This document shows positions 2,940 through 13,421 of a stretch of 64,000 bases of DNA, piece after piece. Positions within the stretch are counted from its first letter, which is position 1. Each line of letters starts with the position of its first letter. The position numbers and the translations under genes are program-made. This stretch comes from Candidatus Brocadiia bacterium (lineage in GTDB: Bacteria; Planctomycetota; Brocadiia; SM23-32): assembly GCA_046538485.1 (NCBI GenBank), contig JBKHIT010000003.1, forward strand, positions 32,001 to 96,000. Reading direction: 5' to 3'. The notes beneath the pieces are model-generated. The model was not told the origin of the DNA and did no database searches. It saw only the letters and a list, made by a program, of their open reading frames with translations.

Positions 2940-4148
2940 ATGAAGATACGTTTTGTTCCTTTCGAAAAACTTCCCTACAGCGACACCAGCTGGGCTCTCA
3001 TTGAGGGGCCGGACGATTGTGTTTACGCGGCGTCGTGTTGCGAAATGACAGCCGGGGGAACGGTATTTGTCGTTCGGTATGATCCGAAAACCGAGAAGCT
3101 CGAGTACCTGCTGGATGTTGCTGAAGCAGTGGGGCAAAGCCCGCAGAACGATCGGGCGACTCAATGCAAGATTCACTACAGTATGCTGGTGGACGACGAA
3201 GGGGTGATGTACGGGGCGACCCACCTGAGCGGACCCGCAAAATCTCAGCTTCAGTATAATCCCTGGAGCACTTTTGACGACCCCCGGCGCAGTTACGTGG
3301 GATCGCGGATGTTCGCGTACGACTGTGGGGTGGAAAAGGTCCTCTGGACCGATACGCTTATCCCCTGGGAAGGCTGCCGGTGTCTGGCTCTCGATCAGAA
3401 ACGGCGACGTCTCTACGCGGTGGGATATCCGCGGGACCACTTTTATATGTGGGAAATTGATACCCACCAGCGTCACGATCTCGGCCGGATCGGTTCGGTT
3501 AACCCCCAGGCTATCTGGCTGGATTCTCGAGATCGGGCTTACACGACCACAGACTACGGAAAGATACTGGTTTATGATCCTGAAAGGGAAGACTTGAGCC
3601 AGACCGATCTTCAAACGCCGTGCGCGCCTTATCAGAAGGGCTGGCACAACGTTGTTTACGATGCTGTTAAAGTGCCGGGCACCGACGACGTTGTGGGGGT
3701 GAACTGGAACCTGGCTCCGTATCTTTTCCGCTTCAGCCCGGGTGATAAAAGTGGTACCGGGAGATTGCAGAATCTTGGGCCTGCAAGCCCCGGCATCGAA
3801 GGCCGAAAGCTGCGGGGTGTCAATACGGACCACGCAGGAGGGCTTGTTTTCACCGCCGGAGGGGAACTGTTGTTTTCGGTTAGTCGCACACGCGGGGCCG
3901 GCGCCTCGGGGCGCGTAGCCACCTTAAAGAAAATGGATCTGGAGTCGCGGGAAGTGGAAGTTCTGGGGGATCTTGTGGACGAAACTGGTGTTGAGATCGC
4001 ATACATAAGCCGGGCCGTAAGGATCGGCCCTCGCGATCTGGTGATGGGGGTGGTGGGGCGTATCCCGACAGGCATTGTGCATGTCAAACTCGATGAAGAG
4101 CTGGCCAACGGCCCCTATCAGGAAACACAGAGACGATATTGGGGTTGA
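2940..4148 (+). CDS. Uncharacterised beta-propeller-like protein
   Basis: Repeated blade-like motifs (YDPKT, YDPER, DLG), QCKIH motif, no signal peptide. Start set at ATG 2940. Confidence 0.7.
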   Translation: MKIRFVPFEKLPYSDTSWALIEGPDDCVYAASCCEMTAGGTVFVVRYDPKTEKLEYLLDVAEAVGQSPQNDRATQCKIHYSMLVDDEGVMYGATHLSGPAKSQLQYNPWSTFDDPRRSYVGSRMFAYDCGVEKVLWTDTLIPWEGCRCLALDQKRRRLYAVGYPRDHFYMWEIDTHQRHDLGRIGSVNPQAIWLDSRDRAYTTTDYGKILVYDPEREDLSQTDLQTPCAPYQKGWHNVVYDAVKVPGTDDVVGVNWNLAPYLFRFSPGDKSGTGRLQNLGPASPGIEGRKLRGVNTDHAGGLVFTAGGELLFSVSRTRGAGASGRVATLKKMDLESREVEVLGDLVDETGVEIAYISRAVRIGPRDLVMGVVGRIPTGIVHVKLDEELANGPYQETQRRYWG

Positions 4149-4162
4149 ATTGGAGGAGAGAA

Positions 4163-5413
4163 ATGCGCCCGGATCTTGACAATCGCAATTGGCCCGTTCC
4201 GTTCAACCGGCGAGCGAGAAAAGAAGCTCCGAAGCAAGCCGGTTTGTTGCATCAGGCCGGAACGCGTTCGTTTGTTTCGGAAGGTTATGTCCTCGCGAAA
4301 GAGCTGGCAATTAAGGGCACGCTTCGGCCTCTGCCCCCCGGAGAGTCGGCTATTACCGCGCTGGAAGTGGGGCGGAAGTATGTGTTCGGGGCCACTTCGG
4401 GAAGACGAGCACACGTATTTGCATACAATCCTGAACCGGCAAGAGAGGCTGTGATTCCTGTCGCCTGTCTGGAAGAGCATGCGGGTGTGCGCAATTCCCT
4501 CATCTGGCTCGATGGATATGGTCTGGTAGCGGGGACGACCGGTGGCGTCGAGGACGATTCCAAGAGTGGAGAGCTGTTCCGAATTCCCGTGCCGCACGTG
4601 GGAGATGTCATTCAAGAATGGGGCGGAAGTCCTTCCGAACCCGAAGCTCTCGGCGTGCCGGTGAAAGGAGAAGGAATTGCGTGCATGGTGGGCGATCCAG
4701 CCCGACGTATGGCTTATGGGCTGACGGCTGAGACGGGCATGATTTTTGGGTTTGATGCCAAAAATGAGGAGATTCGATGTTACGAACCTGTTGATCAGCT
4801 CGGGCGGTTCAGTCCTCATCTTTTGATGGGGCCCGATGGGTTTCTCTACGGATGTGCGACGGCCGGACAGATCATCCAATGGGATCCTGACCGCGAAGAA
4901 TCACGGGAGACAGGATTGTTTCTGCCCAGCATGGCGGGGCGCTCCAACTACAGCGAAGTGGGGGATTGGGCTCTCGATGTGCAGTCCGGACTCATTTATG
5001 CCGGGGATGTGGCCGATGGGTTGGTCTCGATGATCGATGTGGCCGCGGGTGAAGTTCGTGTGCTCGGAAAACCAACGAGACAGTCGCACGTTCGGGCTAT
5101 TGCCGTCGCGGCGGACGGACGGGTTTACGGTGTTGCGGGCGAGCGGGATAAGATCTGCCACCTGTTTTGCTACCATCCTCCGACCCGGGAGATGCGCGAT
5201 CTCGGCGTGCTTGTTGCCGGAACGGAAAGGCGCTGGTACGGGTATGAATTCGAATGCGCTGTGGCCAGCGCAGACGGACGCGTGTATTTCGGCGAAAGCG
5301 AAAGGGTAAGCCATTTGTTCGTGTATTTCCCGCCGTTGAAACCCGTGACAGGCACGGAGTCAAGCTGCCTCGAAGCCCCGAAAGAAATCGGTCCCTCCGG
5401 CAGTCAGTTATAG
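4163..5413 (+). CDS. Uncharacterised beta-propeller-like protein
   Basis: SD GGAGG before ATG 4163; repeated GPDG/ADGRVY/WDP/DLG blades; 14 bp downstream of the previous gene. Confidence 0.7.
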   Translation: MRPDLDNRNWPVPFNRRARKEAPKQAGLLHQAGTRSFVSEGYVLAKELAIKGTLRPLPPGESAITALEVGRKYVFGATSGRRAHVFAYNPEPAREAVIPVACLEEHAGVRNSLIWLDGYGLVAGTTGGVEDDSKSGELFRIPVPHVGDVIQEWGGSPSEPEALGVPVKGEGIACMVGDPARRMAYGLTAETGMIFGFDAKNEEIRCYEPVDQLGRFSPHLLMGPDGFLYGCATAGQIIQWDPDREESRETGLFLPSMAGRSNYSEVGDWALDVQSGLIYAGDVADGLVSMIDVAAGEVRVLGKPTRQSHVRAIAVAADGRVYGVAGERDKICHLFCYHPPTREMRDLGVLVAGTERRWYGYEFECAVASADGRVYFGESERVSHLFVYFPPLKPVTGTESSCLEAPKEIGPSGSQL

Positions 5414-5649
5414 GCTCCGGTTACGAGTCAGGGAGAACCGGGGAAAAGTTCACAGAAAGCTTTTTTCTGTGCTGCAGCGGGTCTTGAGTGTTTGAGGCTC
5501 AGCCCACAGACAGGTAGAATAGGCGCGAAGAGGCCGGGCTATCGGGTTGTTATCCATATTCTTGCAAAAGTTGGGAGAAGATAGATCTTCTCGTAGAATC
5601 TGAAATTTCCAGATTGCGGACGAGTAAAAAGTGGCCGAGGTTCATTTGT

Positions 5650-7515
5650 ATGGATCAAAAGACAACAGGATCAGCAGCGGGTTATTACGCGATTGTGGTG
5701 TTGACAGCTATTGCGCTGTATAGCGCCACTCTGGCCGCTGGATTTGTGTCGGATGATCGCCCTCTGATCCTTGAGAGTAGCAGGATTCACAGTCTTTCGG
5801 AGGTATCAGGGTATTTCCTGGAGCCCTTTTCACAAAAAAGCCAGGTTGGTCGAAGTGCTCAGTACTACAGGCCTGTTGTATCGACCAGTTTCGCGGTGGA
5901 TTATGCGATAGGCGGGCCACGAGGGGCCTGGTGGTTTCATCTCACGAATATGATGGCGTATGGAGCATGTGCAGCGGCGGTTTTCGCTTTGCTGATGTTT
6001 CTGACGGACAATCGAGACGCATCATTTTTCGGGGCAATCGGTTTCGTAGTCTTGCCCGTCCACGTCTCATCTGTGTGCTGGATCTCAGGGCGGACGGATA
6101 TTTTCGCGTTGCTTTTTGCGGCGATGGCGTTGTTGTGTTTATTAGAAGGGCGCGCTGCCGAAAGGAGGCCCACCTCCTGGTTTTTGCTGGCATTTATATT
6201 TTCTCTTCTGGCGATGTTTTCGAAAGAAGTTGCGCTGGTTCTTATCGGTCTTTGGGCTGTTTTCGAAATTGCCATGGGCCGTAAAGAGCGCTTTAATGCC
6301 GGTATTCTGAGGCGTGCTTTTGCTGGAGGAGTTCTTGTGTGCGCGACCGTGATCTATCTGATTTTTCGGTGGCGGGCCATCGGCGCACTGGGAGCTGGAG
6401 ACGCGGCTCGCAATTTTGATGTTATGAGCTTAAAAGGTATTGCGACGATATGTCGGTGTTTGCTTTCGTATCTGGGAAAACTCGCACTGCCTGTGCAGTT
6501 GAGTTTCGGGTATGAATTTGATCCTTACTCGAGCCTTAGCTGGGAGCCGATAGGGATGCTTATCGGTGGCGGTGTCTTGGCATTAATCACCGTTTATGCT
6601 CTGGTGAGACGGCCTCTGGTAGGATTTGGGTTGAGCTGGATTTGGCTGGGCCTAACACCCGCGTTAAATTTCGTGCCGATCAATGAGATTGTTGCTGAAA
6701 GGTTCTTGTTCTTGCCATCGGTTGGTTTCTGTTTGCTGCTGGCGGTGGCCTTGATGGATATTACGCAGAAGAGTAACGAGGGCCTTTCGCGTGCAGCAAT
6801 GATCGCTGGAACCATTTTGATTATAGGATGGGCCACGAGAGCCGTTGCGGCCATTCCGATATGGCGTTCCCAGAGGACTCTGTATTTCTCGACATTACGT
6901 ACAGCGCCGACCCGGCCGCTTTCCCACGTGATGACGGGGGAAATTTATCTGGACGAGGTTCCTGTTCCCAAGCGAGCGGCGGTGCATTATCGTGCGGGGT
7001 TGCGTTATGCCGAAGAGAGGATTGTCGTACGACAACTCGCCCACACTCAACTTGGCAAAATTTACTCCCGGGAAGGGCAGCTTTTTGGAGCAAGCTGCCA
7101 TTTGAGTCGAGCCTACAGGCTCAACCCGACTGGAAGAGGGGCGGCGGATGAACTGGCAGGAATTTATGTCAAAGCGGCGTTCTGGTGTTTGGGACAAATG
7201 AACGATCCGCGCCGAGCGCTTGCTATACTGGCGAAAGCAGAGAAAATGGATTCCGATGCGAGGATGCTGCATTATCTGAAAGGGGTGGCACTCGCGCAGC
7301 TAGGCAAATTAGAGGATGCCAGGGATGCCTTGATATATACGACTCGCAAGCATCCGGATCTGGCTGTGGCTCATCGGCAGCTGGCTGTCGTGTATGAAAA
7401 AATGGGCAAATTGAGTCGCGCATTGCGGGAAGCAGAGCATGCTTTTAAAATAGACCGATCTCCGGAGAGCGAGACGCTTGTTGAGCGCATCAAGGAAAAA
7501 ACAAATTTGCGATAA
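5650..7515 (+). CDS. TMTC-like GT-C fold membrane glycosyltransferase with C-terminal TPRs
   Basis: FVSDD loop, YYRP, FHLTN, WISGR, SKE, AERFLFLPS; about 10-11 hydrophobic segments followed by helical TPR-like repeats. Confidence 0.8.
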   Translation: MDQKTTGSAAGYYAIVVLTAIALYSATLAAGFVSDDRPLILESSRIHSLSEVSGYFLEPFSQKSQVGRSAQYYRPVVSTSFAVDYAIGGPRGAWWFHLTNMMAYGACAAAVFALLMFLTDNRDASFFGAIGFVVLPVHVSSVCWISGRTDIFALLFAAMALLCLLEGRAAERRPTSWFLLAFIFSLLAMFSKEVALVLIGLWAVFEIAMGRKERFNAGILRRAFAGGVLVCATVIYLIFRWRAIGALGAGDAARNFDVMSLKGIATICRCLLSYLGKLALPVQLSFGYEFDPYSSLSWEPIGMLIGGGVLALITVYALVRRPLVGFGLSWIWLGLTPALNFVPINEIVAERFLFLPSVGFCLLLAVALMDITQKSNEGLSRAAMIAGTILIIGWATRAVAAIPIWRSQRTLYFSTLRTAPTRPLSHVMTGEIYLDEVPVPKRAAVHYRAGLRYAEERIVVRQLAHTQLGKIYSREGQLFGASCHLSRAYRLNPTGRGAADELAGIYVKAAFWCLGQMNDPRRALAILAKAEKMDSDARMLHYLKGVALAQLGKLEDARDALIYTTRKHPDLAVAHRQLAVVYEKMGKLSRALREAEHAFKIDRSPESETLVERIKEKTNLR

Positions 7516-7551
7516 ATCCGAGAAGAATAGCAAGGGGGTTGGAGGAAACGA

Positions 7552-9063
7552 ATGGAAAAAAACAGCGGAGTGACAGCCAAAGATCTTTTTCAGCATGGCA
7601 GGGGCATAACGTACGATGATTTTATTCTCCTTCCCGGATATATTTCCTTCGGGTTGGATGATGTCGATATGGAAACTCAGCTCACCCGTGAAATAAGCCT
7701 GAAGAGACCTGTCGTCAGTTCTCCCATGGACACGGTGACAGAAAGCGAGATGGCTATTCGTCTTGCCCTTCTGGGGGGTATAGGGTTCATACACTATAAT
7801 AACACCGTGGAGGAACAGGTTCAGCACGTCTCCCACGCAAAACGGTTTGAGAACGGCTTTATAACCGATCCGGTGGTTCTTTCGCCCGATGATCGGATCG
7901 AAGATGTGGACCAGATTAAAGAAGAACACGGTTTCAGCGGAGTTCCGATTACCGAGGATGGAGAGCTTGGCAGCCAATTGGTAGGGATTGTGACCCGTCG
8001 AGATGTCGATTTCGAACCGAATCGTCAACGGTTGTTGAAGGAGGTTATGACAAGTGATTTAGTGACGGCGGCGGAGGGAATTACTCTGGAGGAAGGGAAC
8101 CGAATTCTTAAGGAAAGCAAGAAGGGTAAGCTGCCTATTGTGGATGATGATGGGAATTTGGTGTCGCTGATGAGTCGCACCGACCTTCGGAAGAATCAGG
8201 ATTTTCCCCTGGCAAGCAAAGACCCTTCGAAACAGCTGTTGGTTGGCGCGGCGGTAGGAACGCGAGAATGGGACCGGAAGCGCCTTGAAGCCCTCGTTGA
8301 CGCCGGGGTCGATGTTGTTGTATTCGACAGTGCTCAGGGTTATTCATCTTTCCAGACCGAGATTGTGAAATGGGCAAAAAGTCATTTCCCCGATCTCCAG
8401 ATCGTTGGTGGTAACGTTGTGACGGTAGAACAGTGCCGTGGGCTGATCGATGCCGGCGTTGATGCGTTGCGGGTTGGTATGGGCAGCGGTTCGATCTGCA
8501 TAACGCAGGAAACCGTGGCTGTTGGGCGTTCCCAGGGCTGTGCTGTGTACGAATGTGCAGCATTTTCACGGGACAAAGGTGTTCCTGTCCTTGCCGATGG
8601 GGGAGTTCGTTCAATCGGGCATATTGCCCGTGCCCTGGCGATTGGAGCTTCGACCGTTATGATGGGTTCCATGCTGGCCGGAACTGATGAAGCCCCGGGC
8701 GAGTATTTTTACGAAGGTGGAGTGCGACTTAAACGATATCGAGGTATGGCTTCCCTTGAAGCCATGGAAGAAGGTGGGGACAAGCGCTATTTTACGGAAG
8801 ACCAGCCGCTCAAAGTTGCTCAGGGCGTCAGCGGTGCCGTAGTGGATAAGGGATCGGTTGTCGATTACATACCATATCTTATGCAGGGCGTGAAACATAC
8901 AATGCAAGATATGGGTTATCGGACGCTCCAGGAGCTTCATGAGGCGCTGTATAAAGGCGAGCTTCGGTTTGAATCTCGAAGCATGTCAGCCCAGAAGGAG
9001 GGGAGCGTTCACAGCCTGCATTCCTTTAACGAACCACACCGTTTCACTCCGAGAAAAAAGTAA
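7552..9063 (+). CDS. guaB: Inosine-5'-monophosphate dehydrogenase with CBS pair (eukaryote-type signatures)
   Basis: [12 protein letters not shown] subdomain, catalytic loop [33 protein letters not shown]. Confidence 0.97.
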
Positions 9064-9184
9064 CTTTCGAGTGCCCTCCCGTTTGATGTATCATCGATAG
9101 TGGTTTCCTGCGGCTGTTCCGCGGTCGAAGCGTTATTATTGTATCTGCTTGTTAAATGTGGTTTTAGTGAACACTGGGTAGCGG

Positions 9185-11029
9185 GTGAGGCACGTGTTTC
9201 GAATCCGTATTTGCATTCTTGTTTGTATGTTCCTGCTCGGGGGGGGTGTTTTATTGGCTCGTCTCGGGCAGATGCAAATTGCATGGCACGAGGAGTTTTC
9301 GCCCGAACAGCAGTTGCCCTCAACGCAGGGTCGCCCTCTGCCAACTGTCCGTGGGACAATTTACAGCGCAGATGGGGTTGAACTCGCCTATGACAGACCA
9401 TGTTTCGATCTATCCATCCACTATTCTGAACTGGAGAAAGAAGAATGGATTGACACTGTGGTCGGTTTGATGGAAGTTAACCGGGGAAATTTGAGGAAAC
9501 GAGCCCAATCTATCATCAAACGGGTCGAACGCATTTGGCGCGGAGTGAAGGAACATACCGGGTTAGAAAACCTTCGCATCGTTGAACAGGAGCAATACCA
9601 CCCGGTCGTAAAAGATATCCCCGCTGATGTGGCGGCGGCCGTGAAGGCTTTTCCAGAACGGTTTCCGAAACTTAGTGTTATTTGCCGGGCAAAACGGGTA
9701 TACAGCGAGAAATCGCTGGCCCCTCAGGTCGTCGGCCGGTGCGCCCCAATCTCTGCCGAAAAGTGGCGCGAGTTGAAAGCTGGTGGGAATATATGGACAA
9801 CGGAAATGCCGATTGCCAAAATCGGAAAACGGTACCGCCAGGACGATAGAATTGGGGTGAGCGGGTTGGAAAAATTCTATGAATCCGTCCTGCGCGGCCG
9901 ACGCGGCTACGTCGAGGAAGAGATCTATTTCCGGCCCCTCACTGTGGAAAGAAGAGAAAATGAGATCTCCCCGGAACCGGGCTACAATATTTACCTTACC
10001 CTGCGGGCGGATTTTCAACAGATCGTTAATGATAGCCTTCGGTGGGCCTCTGAGCAACCTCAGCTTGCTTTCAAGAGCGGCGCGCTGGTAATCGTTGGAG
10101 TAAAAACGGGGGCTCTTCTCGCCGCAGGCACATATCCCAGTTGCGATCGGGAACAGTACCGAAAACATTTTAAATCGCTTGTCCAGGCCGAATTTAGTCC
10201 GCTGCTTTTTCGCCCGACCCAAAGCGCGATACCTACTGGTTCCGTCTACAAACCTATCACAGCGATTGCTGGATTGGAAGAGGGGGAAATAACCCTTGCC
10301 ACCAGTTTCCGATGTGAGGGGCGCAAACGCTTCCATGGACGCTGGTTCCACTGTACGGGCTTTCACCGAGATATCGGTCTTTTGAAGGCCATTGAACGTT
10401 CATGCAATATCTACTTCTATGAAGTGGCCAAACGTCTGAAGGGAGAAAAACTGGCCAGCTGGGGCAAGTCTTTTGGCCTAGGACAAAATACGGGCATAGA
10501 TCTGCCATATGAACGGAGTGGTAATCTTCCTACACCGCAGACTCTTTTCGGTCGTTTGAACCTCGCGATAGGTCAGGGCAAGATTCTCTGTACCCCACTT
10601 CAGGTCGCCCGAGTCTACGCGACCATAGCGAATGGTGGAGTTTTAATTCAGCCCCATCTGCTTGACCGTGTTACCGGACCAGAGGGCGAGCTCGTTCGCT
10701 ATTTTGAGCCTGATATGAAAACCATTGACGTGAAAGCTGAGACTATGAAGGCTGTGAAACGGGGAATGTATCGAGTGACGAGTTCGACCGGGACCGCGCG
10801 TCATGCGGACCTGAGGCCATTTGGGGTCGCAGGAAAAACCGGCACAGCCGAGATCGGGATTGAGGGCATCAATCACGCGTGGTTCGCGGGATTTGCACCT
10901 TACGAAGATCCAAAAATTGCCTTTGCCGTGGTCAGTGAGCGTAATCCGGGACACGGAGGTAGCCACGCCGCTCCTATTATTCGGCGGGTCCTGGAGAAGA
11001 TCTGGCCTTCTGTTAAAAAAATGCCTTGA
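9185..11029 (+). CDS. mrdA: Class B penicillin-binding protein (PBP2-like transpeptidase)
   Basis: N-terminal TM, RGTIY, GVSGLEKFYE, SxxK (SVYK), SxN (SCN), KTG, HAWFAGFAP. Confidence 0.85.
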   Translation: MRHVFRIRICILVCMFLLGGGVLLARLGQMQIAWHEEFSPEQQLPSTQGRPLPTVRGTIYSADGVELAYDRPCFDLSIHYSELEKEEWIDTVVGLMEVNRGNLRKRAQSIIKRVERIWRGVKEHTGLENLRIVEQEQYHPVVKDIPADVAAAVKAFPERFPKLSVICRAKRVYSEKSLAPQVVGRCAPISAEKWRELKAGGNIWTTEMPIAKIGKRYRQDDRIGVSGLEKFYESVLRGRRGYVEEEIYFRPLTVERRENEISPEPGYNIYLTLRADFQQIVNDSLRWASEQPQLAFKSGALVIVGVKTGALLAAGTYPSCDREQYRKHFKSLVQAEFSPLLFRPTQSAIPTGSVYKPITAIAGLEEGEITLATSFRCEGRKRFHGRWFHCTGFHRDIGLLKAIERSCNIYFYEVAKRLKGEKLASWGKSFGLGQNTGIDLPYERSGNLPTPQTLFGRLNLAIGQGKILCTPLQVARVYATIANGGVLIQPHLLDRVTGPEGELVRYFEPDMKTIDVKAETMKAVKRGMYRVTSSTGTARHADLRPFGVAGKTGTAEIGIEGINHAWFAGFAPYEDPKIAFAVVSERNPGHGGSHAAPIIRRVLEKIWPSVKKMP

Positions 11030-11117
11030 AATCCGGCGATGACATTAGGCGGCCGGTCGGTTAAACTAATATGGATTTTTGCGGAAAAGGACGTCTCCAA
11101 AAAGGGAGGAACGGACA

Positions 11118-11573
11118 ATGCGTGCATTAAAAGTGTGTCTCTGGATTATAGGCGTGTTGTATCTGCTGTCCGTCGTGGGGTTATTTCTTCCGATGAGCAC
11201 TCTTGAGTCGCTCGCGCACGCGGTGGCAGAAGGTGAAATTCCGCAGTCTCCAGCCTTTGCATATGCGGTACGGGTTTTATCCGGCACTTTTGTGCTGATC
11301 GGTATCTTTTACATTATTCTTGCGCGGGAACCTGAACGATACCCTGTTCTTGTGCCGTTCTCCGGCGTAGGTTCGATAGCCATCGGACTTATATCGGGCG
11401 TCGCAGGGGGACTCGGTCAACTACCCATGGCGTGGTTCCTGGTAGATTGCTTATCTCTCTCAGGTTTTGGAGTTCTCATCCTGATTTTCTGGGGGATTTC
11501 CCAGAATAAGTCCCCGGAAGAACCGGAGCCCGTTGTCGATGAAAGCTTCGATGAACCGGACCTGAGTTGTTAA
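11118..11573 (+). CDS. Hypothetical 4-TM membrane protein
   Basis: SD GGAGG before ATG 11118; four hydrophobic segments and an acidic tail. Confidence 0.7.
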   Translation: MRALKVCLWIIGVLYLLSVVGLFLPMSTLESLAHAVAEGEIPQSPAFAYAVRVLSGTFVLIGIFYIILAREPERYPVLVPFSGVGSIAIGLISGVAGGLGQLPMAWFLVDCLSLSGFGVLILIFWGISQNKSPEEPEPVVDESFDEPDLSC

Positions 11574-11639
11574 ACAGGTTTTTACCGGGACCGGTGGGGT
11601 TTCCCGTATCCTGGTGTCATTCAGAAACGGCCAGTTTTT

Positions 11640-13421
11640 CTAACCCGTTGTATCCGTTTTGCCGCCTCTGACCTCGACCAATTCCTGGTCGGCCCACTGG
11701 ATATCTTCGGCACGTAGCTCAACATTGACGCGCCCATTGAAGCTGTTGATTATCGGTTCGAAGGCGAGACAAAAAGGTTCATCGCTTCTTTCCTGAAGAG
11801 GGTTGAGCCAGTCGGCTTTTCTAAAAGCGATGACTTTAAGGGTTGTGTCGTTTTGGCGAACCTTAAAAGATAAATGATTGCGGTGACTTCCCACGAGTTT
11901 AGGATTGCCCACCACTGTGAGATCGGTTGCGGCGAAGAGCGGGTCAGGATTGCCTTTTCCGAAGGGGGCGAGAACTTTGAATTCTTCCACCGCGGGGCGA
12001 GTTAATTGTTGAAGACCAATTTCTCCTTCGAGTTCCAGCTGCGGGACGGGCGGCTCGTCACCGAGTTTCTTCCGGGCCAGAGCGTTCATCTTCTCCCTGA
12101 AGGTATCGAGTTTTTCCAGCGGTAGGGTGAGACCGGCGGCGCCCTCATGGCCACCGAAACGCACCAGAAGCTCTTCGCAGTCGGCAATTGCGTTAAAGAG
12201 ATGAAAGCCAGGTATACTGCGGGCGCTGCCTCGAGCCAGATCTTCTTGTTCGTGGAAGACAAACGTTGGCCGCCAGAAACGTTCGGCCAGCCGTGAGGCG
12301 ACCAACCCCACCACGCCCGGATGCCATTCTTCGCTCGATAGCATGAGGCACCCGATTTGTTCAGGGTTATACTGTGCTTCGACTAACTGCTGAGCTTGTT
12401 CAGTGGCAAGACGCTGGATGCTCTGACGTTTTCTATTTTGTTTCTGCAAATGTTCAGCTATTTCGCTGGCTTCACGCGGGTTATCGGTCACAAACATATC
12501 CACCGCAGCCCGGGCATCGGCGACGCGGCCTGCTGCATTGAGGCGCGGGGCAAGCTGGAAACCTATGTGGTAAGTCGTCAAATTTGATTTGCCGGCAATC
12601 CTTGCTACTTCCATGAGGGCTTGAAGTCCAGGAATTCGTGACTGCGGAAGGATGCGAAGGCCAAAACGGGTGAGTATACGGTTTTCATCGACAAGAGGTA
12701 CGATGTCGGCAACCGTTCCAATTGCCACAAGAGGCAGCATTTCCATCAAATGTTCCCGGTAATCTTCGGGCATGGTTCCCCCGCCGGCGAGACGTTGCCC
12801 AAGAGCCCAGATGAGTTTATATGCGACTCCAACCCCTGCCAGACCTTCGTAACCGAATTCACATTGCCCAAGATGAGGATTGAGTATAGCACGGGCGTTC
12901 GGAAGCTCACCTTTTAGTTCGTGGTGATCTGTGATAATTAGATCGAGACCAAACTCGCTGGCTTTTTTGGCTTCTTTACGTGCTGATATGCCACAATCGA
13001 CGGTCACGACAACATCAGTGCCGCTGGATTTTATCTCCGATAACGCATCGCAGTTGAGACCGTAGCCTTCTTCAAGTCGCCGGGGGATATAATAGTCTAC
13101 TTCAGCGCCCAGGATTTTAAGAGACCGCACTAGAATTGCCGTCGCACAGATACCGTCCGCATCGTAATCACCATAAACGGTGACTTGTTTCCCCTCTTTT
13201 GCGGCGGAAAACAAAAAATCAGCGGCTTCTTTCAAAGCTTCGTGGTCACGGGGATCGTGCAAGTTGTGGAGTGATGGTTCAAGAAAAGCGCGTGCGTCTG
13301 AGAATTCTGTAAGCCCCCGATTCACCAGCAAACGGGCTGTCACTGGAGAGACTCGAAGGCGGTCCTGAAGTTGACGAACCGAGGTGGGCTCCGGGGCCGG
13401 GAATATCCATTTGCGTTCCAT
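11640..13421 (-). CDS. recJ: Single-stranded-DNA-specific exonuclease RecJ
   Basis: YGDYDADG, TVDCG, TDHH, PRLNAAGR, RGSARS, GGHEGAAG, PFGKGNP. Confidence 0.96.
   Translation of the reverse strand: MERKWIFPAPEPTSVRQLQDRLRVSPVTARLLVNRGLTEFSDARAFLEPSLHNLHDPRDHEALKEAADFLFSAAKEGKQVTVYGDYDADGICATAILVRSLKILGAEVDYYIPRRLEEGYGLNCDALSEIKSSGTDVVVTVDCGISARKEAKKASEFGLDLIITDHHELKGELPNARAILNPHLGQCEFGYEGLAGVGVAYKLIWALGQRLAGGGTMPEDYREHLMEMLPLVAIGTVADIVPLVDENRILTRFGLRILPQSRIPGLQALMEVARIAGKSNLTTYHIGFQLAPRLNAAGRVADARAAVDMFVTDNPREASEIAEHLQKQNRKRQSIQRLATEQAQQLVEAQYNPEQIGCLMLSSEEWHPGVVGLVASRLAERFWRPTFVFHEQEDLARGSARSIPGFHLFNAIADCEELLVRFGGHEGAAGLTLPLEKLDTFREKMNALARKKLGDEPPVPQLELEGEIGLQQLTRPAVEEFKVLAPFGKGNPDPLFAATDLTVVGNPKLVGSHRNHLSFKVRQNDTTLKVIAFRKADWLNPLQERSDEPFCLAFEPIINSFNGRVNVELRAEDIQWADQELVEVRGGKTDTTG

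Follow-up and report, generated by a model that had tools for sequence, protein, structure and literature searches.

Why does a planctomycete encode an inosine monophosphate (IMP) dehydrogenase that is closer to the human enzyme than to the canonical GuaB of most of its own phylum? The question is raised by guaB (7552..9063, forward strand) in a 64,000-nucleotide (nt) stretch of DNA from a Candidatus Brocadiia bacterium (GenBank assembly GCA_046538485.1, contig JBKHIT010000003.1, positions 32,001 to 96,000 of the forward strand), referred to here as the window. The window's own genome, G000, is a metagenome-assembled genome (MAG) of 5.19 Mb in 143 contigs, 88.3% complete and with an estimated contamination of 4%. 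The guaB gene encodes the sole IMP dehydrogenase (IMPDH) found in G000. Descriptions of this type are otherwise confined to eukaryotes; here it is found to be inherited through a sizeable bacterial group. We consider it likely that guaB is a resident, vertically inherited gene of the eukaryote type, and that its product is controlled by eukaryote-like feedback of guanosine tri- and diphosphate (GTP and GDP).

The open reading frame (ORF) of guaB is intact and uninterrupted, and encodes 503 amino acids from an ATG start. The Shine-Dalgarno sequence that a preliminary description of the locus had noted is a GGAGG, read from the sequence at 7541..7545 (forward strand), 6 nt 5' of the ATG. A 36-nt gap separates guaB from the stop codon of the upstream gene (7515). 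The stop-to-stop frame spans just 510 amino acids, and a longer N-terminus encoded upstream is therefore impossible. No sigma-70-like site near guaB was found in a promoter scan, and the one terminator-like site inside the ORF is not above chance expectation.

The window protein scores 621.3 bits against the NCBIfam IMP dehydrogenase model TIGR01302 (cut-off 481.5) and 438 bits against Pfam PF00478 (IMPDH). Two stretches match Pfam CBS (E = 6e-18), the better one at residues 163-214. The CBS pair forms the Bateman regulatory domain at approximately residues 97-217 (7840..8202, forward strand), with limits estimated from the alignment with human IMPDH2. Alignments place the catalytic Cys316 (8497..8499, forward strand), the equivalent of human Cys331, in a GxGSICxT-type loop. 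Assignment as a guanosine monophosphate (GMP) reductase (GuaC; GuaB1-type) was ruled out, the scores being 232 against a cut-off of 675 for NF052358, 137 against 492 for TIGR01305, and 153 against 397 for NF003470; the NCBIfam GuaB1 and GuaB3 models are likewise far under their cut-offs. The PF00478 search of G000 returned one IMPDH and, as second match, a different protein at 29 bits, so that the canonical second guaB that the preliminary description proposed to look for was not found in this 88.3%-complete genome. The guaA gene, encoding GMP synthase, is located elsewhere (G000:C132). Since G000 contains one IMPDH gene and guaA, the window gene would be the organism's IMPDH, with the caveat of an incomplete genome. 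Its sequence points to a working guaB that encodes an IMPDH dependent on nicotinamide adenine dinucleotide (NAD).

The closest chains in the Protein Data Bank (PDB) are eukaryotic: human IMPDH2 at 651 bits (chain 1b3o_A, query residues 4-493 aligned with human residues 15-510), human IMPDH1 at 646 bits, and Ashbya IMPDH at 600 bits. Chain 4af0 scores 572 bits and 8c53/6rfu 494, whereas the best bacterial chains reach 354-367 bits. Identity to the solved structures is about 58%. In BLASTP comparisons, the window protein is 57.2-61.4% identical to nine stramenopile sequences, 58.8% to a fungal-like sequence, and 55.5% over a partial alignment to an animal-like sequence, versus 43.4-45.2% to six canonical planctomycete GuaBs. 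Two representatives of a library clustered at 50% identity tie as the best matches at 617 bits. One of them (P0121), with 58% identity to the window protein, is an IMPDH from the stramenopile alga Chrysophaeum taylorii. The other (P0122) is fungal-like, 60% identical in the library search, and scores 763 bits to the Ashbya chain. A third representative (P0124) resembles vertebrate IMPDH2 and scores 880 bits against the human protein. No near-identical PDB chain was found for P0127 or P0123. Family models do not discriminate between the groups: 34 of 35 library representatives fall under TIGR01302 in an NCBIfam scan, and P0169 has no match at threshold. A protein-atlas search returned generic IMPDH clusters. 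The comparisons confirm that the window enzyme belongs to the "eukaryotic" IMPDH subfamily, apart from canonical bacterial GuaB. Its host, a Brocadiia-class planctomycete, is the point at which it departs from a subfamily encoded by eukaryotes.

Individual peptides agree with this assignment. The eukaryote-like peptides quoted in the preliminary description are all present in the translation, and the human strings set beside them are seen in the IMPDH2 alignment. The contrast drawn there with typical bacterial GuaB holds within the phylum for all six canonical GuaBs examined, which contain VKVGIGPGSICTTR in 6/6 cases and LVPEGVEG in 5/6 (locus L061 has LVAEGIEG). Canonical GuaB, represented by the enzymes of Pseudomonas aeruginosa (4dqw), Bacillus anthracis (3tsb) and most Planctomycetota, catalyzes the same reaction, is likewise a TIM barrel into which a CBS pair is inserted, and falls under the same TIGR01302 model. 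It differs in having KVEK or RIEK, with Glu, in place of KKGK, Lys at the position of human residue 322, and Glu at 441, and it lacks the site-3 residues.

The human enzymes IMPDH2 and IMPDH1 (PDB 1b3o, 6u8e, 7rer and others) match the window protein over its full length. They have in common the Cys loop, Arg322, Gln441, KKGK, the site-2 residues Arg224 and Asp226, the site-3 residues Asn198, Leu227 and Lys238, and the C-terminal ...VHSLHS. The human proteins differ in an N-terminal segment of 11 residues with Tyr12, which is absent from the window protein, and in Arg356 and Arg231, which are replaced by Asp341 and Gln216. Unlike the human genes, the window gene is located in a bacterial host, has a Shine-Dalgarno sequence, and is uninterrupted. 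The IMPDH of Ashbya gossypii (PDB 5tc3, 5mcp, 4z87) is the defining model for the third GDP site and for KKGK. The window protein shares KKGK with it, as well as residues equivalent to Ashbya Asn200, Leu229 and Lys240. Its N-terminus is shorter: the xTYDD motif is preceded by 18 residues in the window protein and by 34 in the fungal-like representative P0122. Inhibition by GTP and GDP, known for the Ashbya enzyme, is a prediction for the window enzyme.

The more interesting feature of the window protein, which the preliminary description overlooked, is the combination of KKGK with the site-3 signature. Three guanine-nucleotide sites of Ashbya IMPDH were defined by Buey et al. 2015, and the passages of that paper drawn on here state that KKGK, with its Gly, defines eukaryotic IMPDHs against the "RIEK", with Glu, of prokaryotes (PMC4660370). 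In the same passages, Asn198, Leu227 and Lys238 of human IMPDH1 contact GDP3, Arg224 contacts GDP2, and Asp226 and Arg231 are placed at the Bateman interface. The Gly of KKGK touches a GDP phosphate, and the Ashbya substitution N200K abolishes inhibition by GTP and GDP (PMC4660370). Site 3 is called "exclusive of eukaryotic enzymes" there, the exclusivity is repeated in part of the text of Fernandez-Justel et al. 2022 (PMC9462843), and a section of a 2024 review describes site S3 as specific for eukaryotic IMPDHs (PMC10912719).

The window protein has all of these residues but Arg231, which is replaced by Gln216. By alignment, Asn183 (8098..8100) is the equivalent of human Asn198, the KKGK motif occupies residues 190-193 of CBS2 (8119..8130), Leu212 (8185..8187) corresponds to Leu227, and Lys223 (8218..8220) to Lys238, all on the forward strand. 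Just before Leu212 are Arg209 and Asp211, the equivalents of Arg224 and Asp226. A survey of an alignment of 92 rows included 19 planctomycete eukaryote-type rows, the window protein among them, and nine from other bacterial phyla (Vampirovibrio, Spirochaetota and Hydrogenedentota). In human numbering, Asn198, Arg224, Asp226, Lys238, Arg322 and Cys331 are present in 28/28 of these bacterial rows, and position 227 is Leu or Ile in all of them. A K-x-G-[KT] motif occurs in each of the 28, in 22 as KKGK, and Gln441 is present in all but one (L041, with His). The six canonical planctomycete GuaBs all have KVEK, Lys322 and Glu441, and none has Asn198. The signature that the IMPDH field regards as restricted to eukaryotes is thus fully present in these bacteria. 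Full-text searching found no paper describing the eukaryote-type IMPDH signature in bacteria; the search left subscription journals mostly uncovered, and the supplementary alignments of Buey and Fernandez-Justel were outside it.

Because KKGK and the site-2 and site-3 residues are present, we infer a eukaryote-like feedback by GTP and GDP. In the proposed mechanism, adenosine triphosphate (ATP) would keep the octamers extended and active, and binding of GTP or GDP to sites 2 and 3 would compact the octamers and inhibit catalysis. Xanthosine monophosphate would be made through a covalent intermediate on Cys316. The bacterial eukaryote-type IMPDHs as a group may be regulated in the same way, by guanine nucleotides at both sites and octamer compaction. 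The result would be direct end-product feedback in a phylum mostly without synthetases of (p)ppGpp (guanosine penta- and tetraphosphate). For canonical GuaB, the consulted part of Fernandez-Justel et al. describes competition of ATP with (p)ppGpp, or of ATP with GTP at site 2 (PMC9462843).

Accounts of the regulation of IMPDH, a major drug target, usually divide eukaryotes cleanly from bacteria at the third, guanine-only site. The eukaryote type with its complete signature is carried by at least four bacterial phyla, and the rule of eukaryote exclusivity therefore has exceptions. The residues predict that there are bacteria, many of them in a phylum mostly without (p)ppGpp synthetases, that control GTP synthesis in the eukaryotic way. 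The bacterial orthologues would be easily expressed proteins for the study of site 3.

The window gene belongs to an old set of eukaryote-type IMPDH genes found in several bacterial phyla. The preliminary description interpreted it as a bacterial sister lineage of eukaryotic IMPDH, or as a transfer related to it. That interpretation is supported by the trees, the intact locus, and the search for a second guaB, which found none; it needs correction in that the gene is not singular but belongs to a large, old set spread over planctomycete classes, Spirochaetota, Hydrogenedentota and Vampirovibrio. The MAGs that contain the closest named proteins and loci carry the labels Planctomycetota, Candidatus Brocadiia or "Brocadiaceae". 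The eukaryote-type gene was sought in 41 genomes of the same family, order and class, G000 included; 40 contain it at 60-78% identity, and the single genome without a match is 70% complete. No canonical GuaB was found in any of the 41. The gene is in two pieces in two of these relatives. In one relative (G008:C14:471164-472667) the pieces are overlapping frames covering residues 1-298 and 292-502; the gene may be a pseudogene, or the split may come from a frameshift or from a mistake in the assembly.

An even sample of 301 Planctomycetota genomes, counted from the result table, is sharply bimodal. The eukaryote-type gene occurs in 15/15 other genomes of the same class and in at least 47/285 genomes of other classes (at least 62/300 in total). 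The carriers from other classes represent 15 further families, at 57-66% identity and, for full-length matches, more than 620 bits. In nearly all remaining genomes the match is a canonical GuaB (41-46% identity, about 340-370 bits), and 15/301 have no match at E <= 1e-30. Five genomes with two matches were searched again. In four of them the second match is an IMPDH-related paralogue of about 300 bits, below the TIGR01302 cut-off (G061:C219, G093:C260, G247:C291 and G198:C494), which may be GuaB1- or GMP-reductase-like. G141, a genome of 12.3 Mb, is the only case of coexistence seen: two of its genes score above the TIGR01302 cut-off for IMPDH, a eukaryote-type one of 634 bits and a second of 525 bits (C99:74185-75552 and C214:20519-21856).

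Outside the phylum, the eukaryote type is present in Vampirovibrio chlorellavorus and Vampirovibrio sp., and a profile search identified it in a Leptospiraceae MAG, Leptospira sp. GIMC2001, four Spirochaetota MAG proteins and a Hydrogenedentota MAG. The window protein is 60-65% identical to these members. A mismatch between IMPDH type and host domain has a mirror image in Cryptosporidium parvum, a eukaryote that is said to have acquired a bacterial-type IMPDH by lateral transfer (reportedly the work of Striepen et al. in 2004). That case concerns a single parasite lineage, whereas the window type is old and spread across several bacterial phyla.

Phylogenetic trees separate the window type from canonical GuaB and group its bacterial members. 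Representatives shorter than 440 or longer than 600 amino acids were excluded, followed by 15 partial, chimeric-looking or Cys-less rows. A reduced set contained 55 rows, and removal of eight long or unnamed rows gave a set of 47. Eukaryotes were sampled thinly, with nine stramenopile, one fungal-like and two animal-like sequences, the last three identified by PDB similarity only. In a FastTree tree of 155 rows, 35/35 planctomycete eukaryote-type rows fall in one group with a support of 97. In a quick IQ-TREE analysis of 77 rows under LG+C20 with posterior mean site frequencies, Planctomycetota, Spirochaetota and Hydrogenedentota form a clade of 26 rows with a support of 99 in the Shimodaira-Hasegawa-like approximate likelihood-ratio test (SH-aLRT). 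That clade lies within a core of 42 rows shared with eukaryotes (support 96). The quick 55-row tree places the bacterial clade (23 rows, 99) as sister to the opisthokont-like group with a support of 96.

In the careful trees, supports are given as ultrafast bootstrap (UFBoot) and SH-aLRT. The bacterial clade of the 55-row tree has 82/99, includes the long-branch rows P0136, P0137 and P0140, and is joined to the opisthokont-like group at 80/95. The core of bacterial eukaryote-type and eukaryotic rows in the 47-row tree is supported at 90/92 and splits at a polytomy into four branches: Vampirovibrio, the opisthokont-like group (96/97), the stramenopiles (97/97) and the bacterial clade (80/63). 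Canonical GuaBs split off in all IQ-TREE trees, with SH-aLRT of 99-100 in the quick and 100/100 in the careful ones. To the question whether the protein nests among ordinary GuaB, which the preliminary description had named as decisive, the 100/100 branch answers no. An approximately unbiased (AU) test did not reject a group of 12 eukaryotic or eukaryote-like rows against 27 bacterial rows (delta lnL 8.9, p-AU 0.277), the group having been named after the trees had been inspected. The polytomy and the AU p-value of 0.28 do not order bacteria and eukaryotes within the core, and they do not give the direction of transfer.

Rows near the core show partial signatures. Besides P0126/P0127/P0145/P0150 and P0164/P0168, discussed below, the intermediate groups comprise P0134-P0142, P0123/P0138 and P0160. 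The long-branch rows P0136, P0137 and P0140, together with P0134, P0142, P0178 and others, have Asn198 and Arg322 but Glu441, and lack KKGK. P0136, P0137 and P0140 shift from outside the core in the quick trees to inside the bacterial clade in the careful 55-row tree. Their placement may result from long-branch attraction, or they may be a fast-evolving offshoot of the bacterial clade. Six further representatives near the core (P0148, P0151, P0198, P0184, P0191 and P0129) have Asn, Gly, Thr or Ala at the position of Cys331. Most of these Cys-less proteins also have Gln441 replaced (P0184 keeps Gln), and they may be non-catalytic IMPDH paralogues. The profile search that identified the spirochaete and Hydrogenedentota members was built from deep groups, yet it matched mostly core sequences.

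How bacteria came to have this enzyme admits two explanations, neither of them probable by itself. The somewhat better one, which we regard as possible though short of an even chance, is an ancient transfer from a eukaryote, perhaps on the opisthokont or Amorphea stem, into an early planctomycete, in which it replaced the native guaB. A secondary spread to spirochaetes and Hydrogenedentota, and an independent arrival in Vampirovibrio, would have followed with the same limited likelihood. Such a replacement in some lineages is plausible, as most of the phylum has a canonical GuaB that groups with other bacterial GuaBs. The bacterial clade stands beside the opisthokont-like group in three trees (SH-aLRT 81 in the 77-row tree, 96 in the quick 55-row tree, and UFBoot/SH-aLRT 80/95 in the careful one). 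Vampirovibrio never groups with other bacteria in four IQ-TREE trees, and Vampirovibrio chlorellavorus preys on a eukaryotic alga. The transfer is opposed by the careful 47-row tree, which collapses the core, by the AU test, which retains the monophyly of eukaryotic and eukaryote-like rows as a group named post hoc, and by the thin sampling of eukaryotes. The bacterial genes are intronless, have short N-terminal tails (3-5 residues before the DG motif in most), and are host-like in composition, which shows only that any transfer was old.

A bacterial origin is slightly less likely and remains a tentative proposal. The type with the third GTP site would have arisen in bacteria, and eukaryotes would have received it from a donor or share it as an old sister lineage. 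Under this proposal, the planctomycete gene would descend from the donor pool and not be a recipient. The occurrence of the complete signature in at least four bacterial phyla is consistent with this origin, and so is the eukaryote monophyly that the AU test does not reject. The deep, diverse groups P0126/P0127/P0145/P0150 and P0164/P0168, located between the core and canonical GuaB, have Arg322 and Gln441 and lack KKGK; if they are prokaryotic, these intermediates would agree with an origin in steps. Against a bacterial origin, the type is patchily distributed in bacteria, reaching within Planctomycetota at least 47/285 genomes outside the window's class, and no tree places bacteria paraphyletically below eukaryotes with support. 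We speculate, with some doubt, that third-site IMPDH and direct GTP feedback are a bacterial invention, present to this day in Planctomycetota, Spirochaetota, Hydrogenedentota and Vampirovibrionia, and that a donor of this kind passed guaB to eukaryotes. If so, the planctomycete enzyme would be a living relative of the donor form and a simple bacterial model for the allostery behind human IMPDH retinopathies and dystonia. In either case, the origin of eukaryotic IMPDH becomes a testable phylogenetic question.

Whatever its ultimate source, guaB has long been resident in the class Brocadiia and is inherited there vertically. Its guanine-plus-cytosine (GC) content of 0.515 and third-position GC (GC3) of 0.522 match those of three neighbouring genes (GC 0.518-0.528, GC3 0.512-0.535), and the GC of the window is 0.53. 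The neighbours are likewise shared with related genomes. Synteny was assessed on 33 related-genome loci, among which several genomes occur twice, having been reached by two routes; a related-locus search with the single protein returned 24 loci, from close Brocadiia relatives only. A gene for a PBP2-type penicillin-binding transpeptidase (9185..11029, forward strand; Pfam Transpeptidase and PBP_dimer) is located downstream of guaB in 25/33 loci, and four of the remaining eight loci end no more than 150 nt past guaB.

The assembly was checked by comparing public assemblies over positions 6800-9800. In a second study, a 5,080-nt contig extends across this interval and both guaB junctions with 48 differences, at about 98.4% identity, and contains neither gaps nor joints. 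The run that may be the source yields an identical contig over the interval, and runs X3 and X4 cover it in short pieces only. The locus is not the chimeric assembly against which the preliminary description had cautioned. Contamination or a chimeric contig that set a eukaryotic gene among bacterial ones, to which the high similarity to eukaryotic IMPDH and the 4% estimated contamination of a MAG might point, is refuted by the shared neighbours, the matching composition and Shine-Dalgarno sequence, the contig without joints across both junctions, and the presence of the gene in 40/41 relatives. An ordinary bacterial GuaB that gained eukaryote-like motifs by convergence, in favour of which there is nothing except the bacterial host, is refuted as firmly by full-length similarity (55-61% to eukaryotes against 43-45% to canonical GuaB), the 100/100 branch, and the stramenopile and fungal-like identity of the two best 50%-cluster representatives.

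The account of a resident eukaryote-type guaB under eukaryote-like feedback is weakened by several observations. At 88% completeness, G000 leaves some room for a second guaB. The careful trees give no more than moderate support to a monophyletic bacterial group (82/99 with the intruding long-branch rows, and 80/63). The regulation of the bacterial members is predicted from their residues. One of these residues is replaced in the window protein: human Arg231 at the Bateman interface corresponds to Gln216, and to Gln, Glu or Ala in the nearest relatives, whereas Arg231 is kept in most other bacterial eukaryote-type members. In the window lineage, nucleotide binding could therefore be coupled to octamer compaction in a different way. 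Finally, canonical GuaB persists in most planctomycetes that are poor in RelA/SpoT.

The last point concerns the alarmone (p)ppGpp. According to the consulted part of Fernandez-Justel et al., it inhibits most non-proteobacterial GuaBs in competition with ATP (PMC9462843). A RelA_SpoT domain was not found in G000, at its completeness of 88.3%. The domain occurs in 14/151 Planctomycetota genomes (13/140 of high quality) versus 11/14 control genomes. These counts agree with a passage of a review according to which Planctomycetes, Verrucomicrobia and Chlamydiae lack genes for RelA/SpoT homologues (RSH) (PMC8118318). Within the phylum, a link of IMPDH type to RelA/SpoT presence was rejected, RelA_SpoT being rare in both groups. 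Because canonical GuaB is common in RelA/SpoT-poor genomes, the lack of (p)ppGpp is context and not an explanation of the eukaryote type, and any selective link between the two would be conjectural.

Two further predictions of the preliminary description concern the inhibitor mycophenolate and the formation of filaments. The pair Arg322/Gln441, said there to be present, is found in the human IMPDH2 alignment as Arg307 (8470..8472, forward strand; NAD/mycophenolate site) and Gln424 (8821..8823, forward strand), where canonical GuaBs have Lys and Glu, respectively. Docking of mycophenolic acid places Arg322 and Gln441 in the binding site, with Gln441 hydrogen-bonded to the drug (PMC4345060). Sensitivity of the window enzyme to mycophenolate, as predicted from the two residues, is plausible. 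It would probably be partial, and in mutagenesis of Tritrichomonas foetus IMPDH by Digits and Hedstrom both residues reportedly account for part of the selectivity only. A selectivity logic of "bacterial versus human IMPDH" is not safe to assume for these lineages, Leptospira included.

The segment with Tyr12 is absent, as described: three residues precede the position of human Asp15, and Tyr12 would fall on the initiator Met. The window protein has neither the Tyr12 tail nor the Arg356 of filament-forming vertebrate IMPDH, the latter being Asp341. The prediction of a non-filamenting enzyme is correct in this respect, yet uninformative. In the portion of Johnson and Kollman cited here, the N-terminal assembly interface is vertebrate-specific and polymerisation is reported only in vertebrates (PMC7018514). 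Since the interface is specific to vertebrates, the missing tail says nothing special about the window protein.

The genes flanking guaB form a partly conserved block. Upstream is a membrane protein gene (5614..7515, forward strand) with a weak, PMT_2-like N-terminal part that is below the Pfam cut-off and C-terminal TPR repeats; its homologue is located upstream of guaB in 7/33 related loci. A RecJ-like exonuclease gene (11640..13421, reverse strand; Pfam DHH, DHHA1 and RecJ_OB) follows PBP2 in 7/33 loci. The order guaB, PBP2, a small ORF and RecJ (window 7552-13421, loci L004-L036) is conserved in Brocadiia-class relatives and represents an unusual pairing of purine and cell-wall genes. IMPDH is the best-conserved product of the block, with 67-78% identity across loci against 40-55% for PBP2. 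An ORF of 424 amino acids (4139-5413, forward strand), upstream of the TPR protein gene, has no Pfam match at E <= 0.001.

Copies of the locus that are near-identical or about 98% identical occur in microbial-mat and salt-lake metagenome contigs from two studies. Among the eukaryotic sequences, P0034 (eukprot) is an 806-amino-acid transcript-derived protein that scores 969 bits against the profile, above any single IMPDH. Its best local alignment covers 71-73% of the query. Duplication or fusion of an IMPDH may account for this protein, as may mis-assembly of the transcript.

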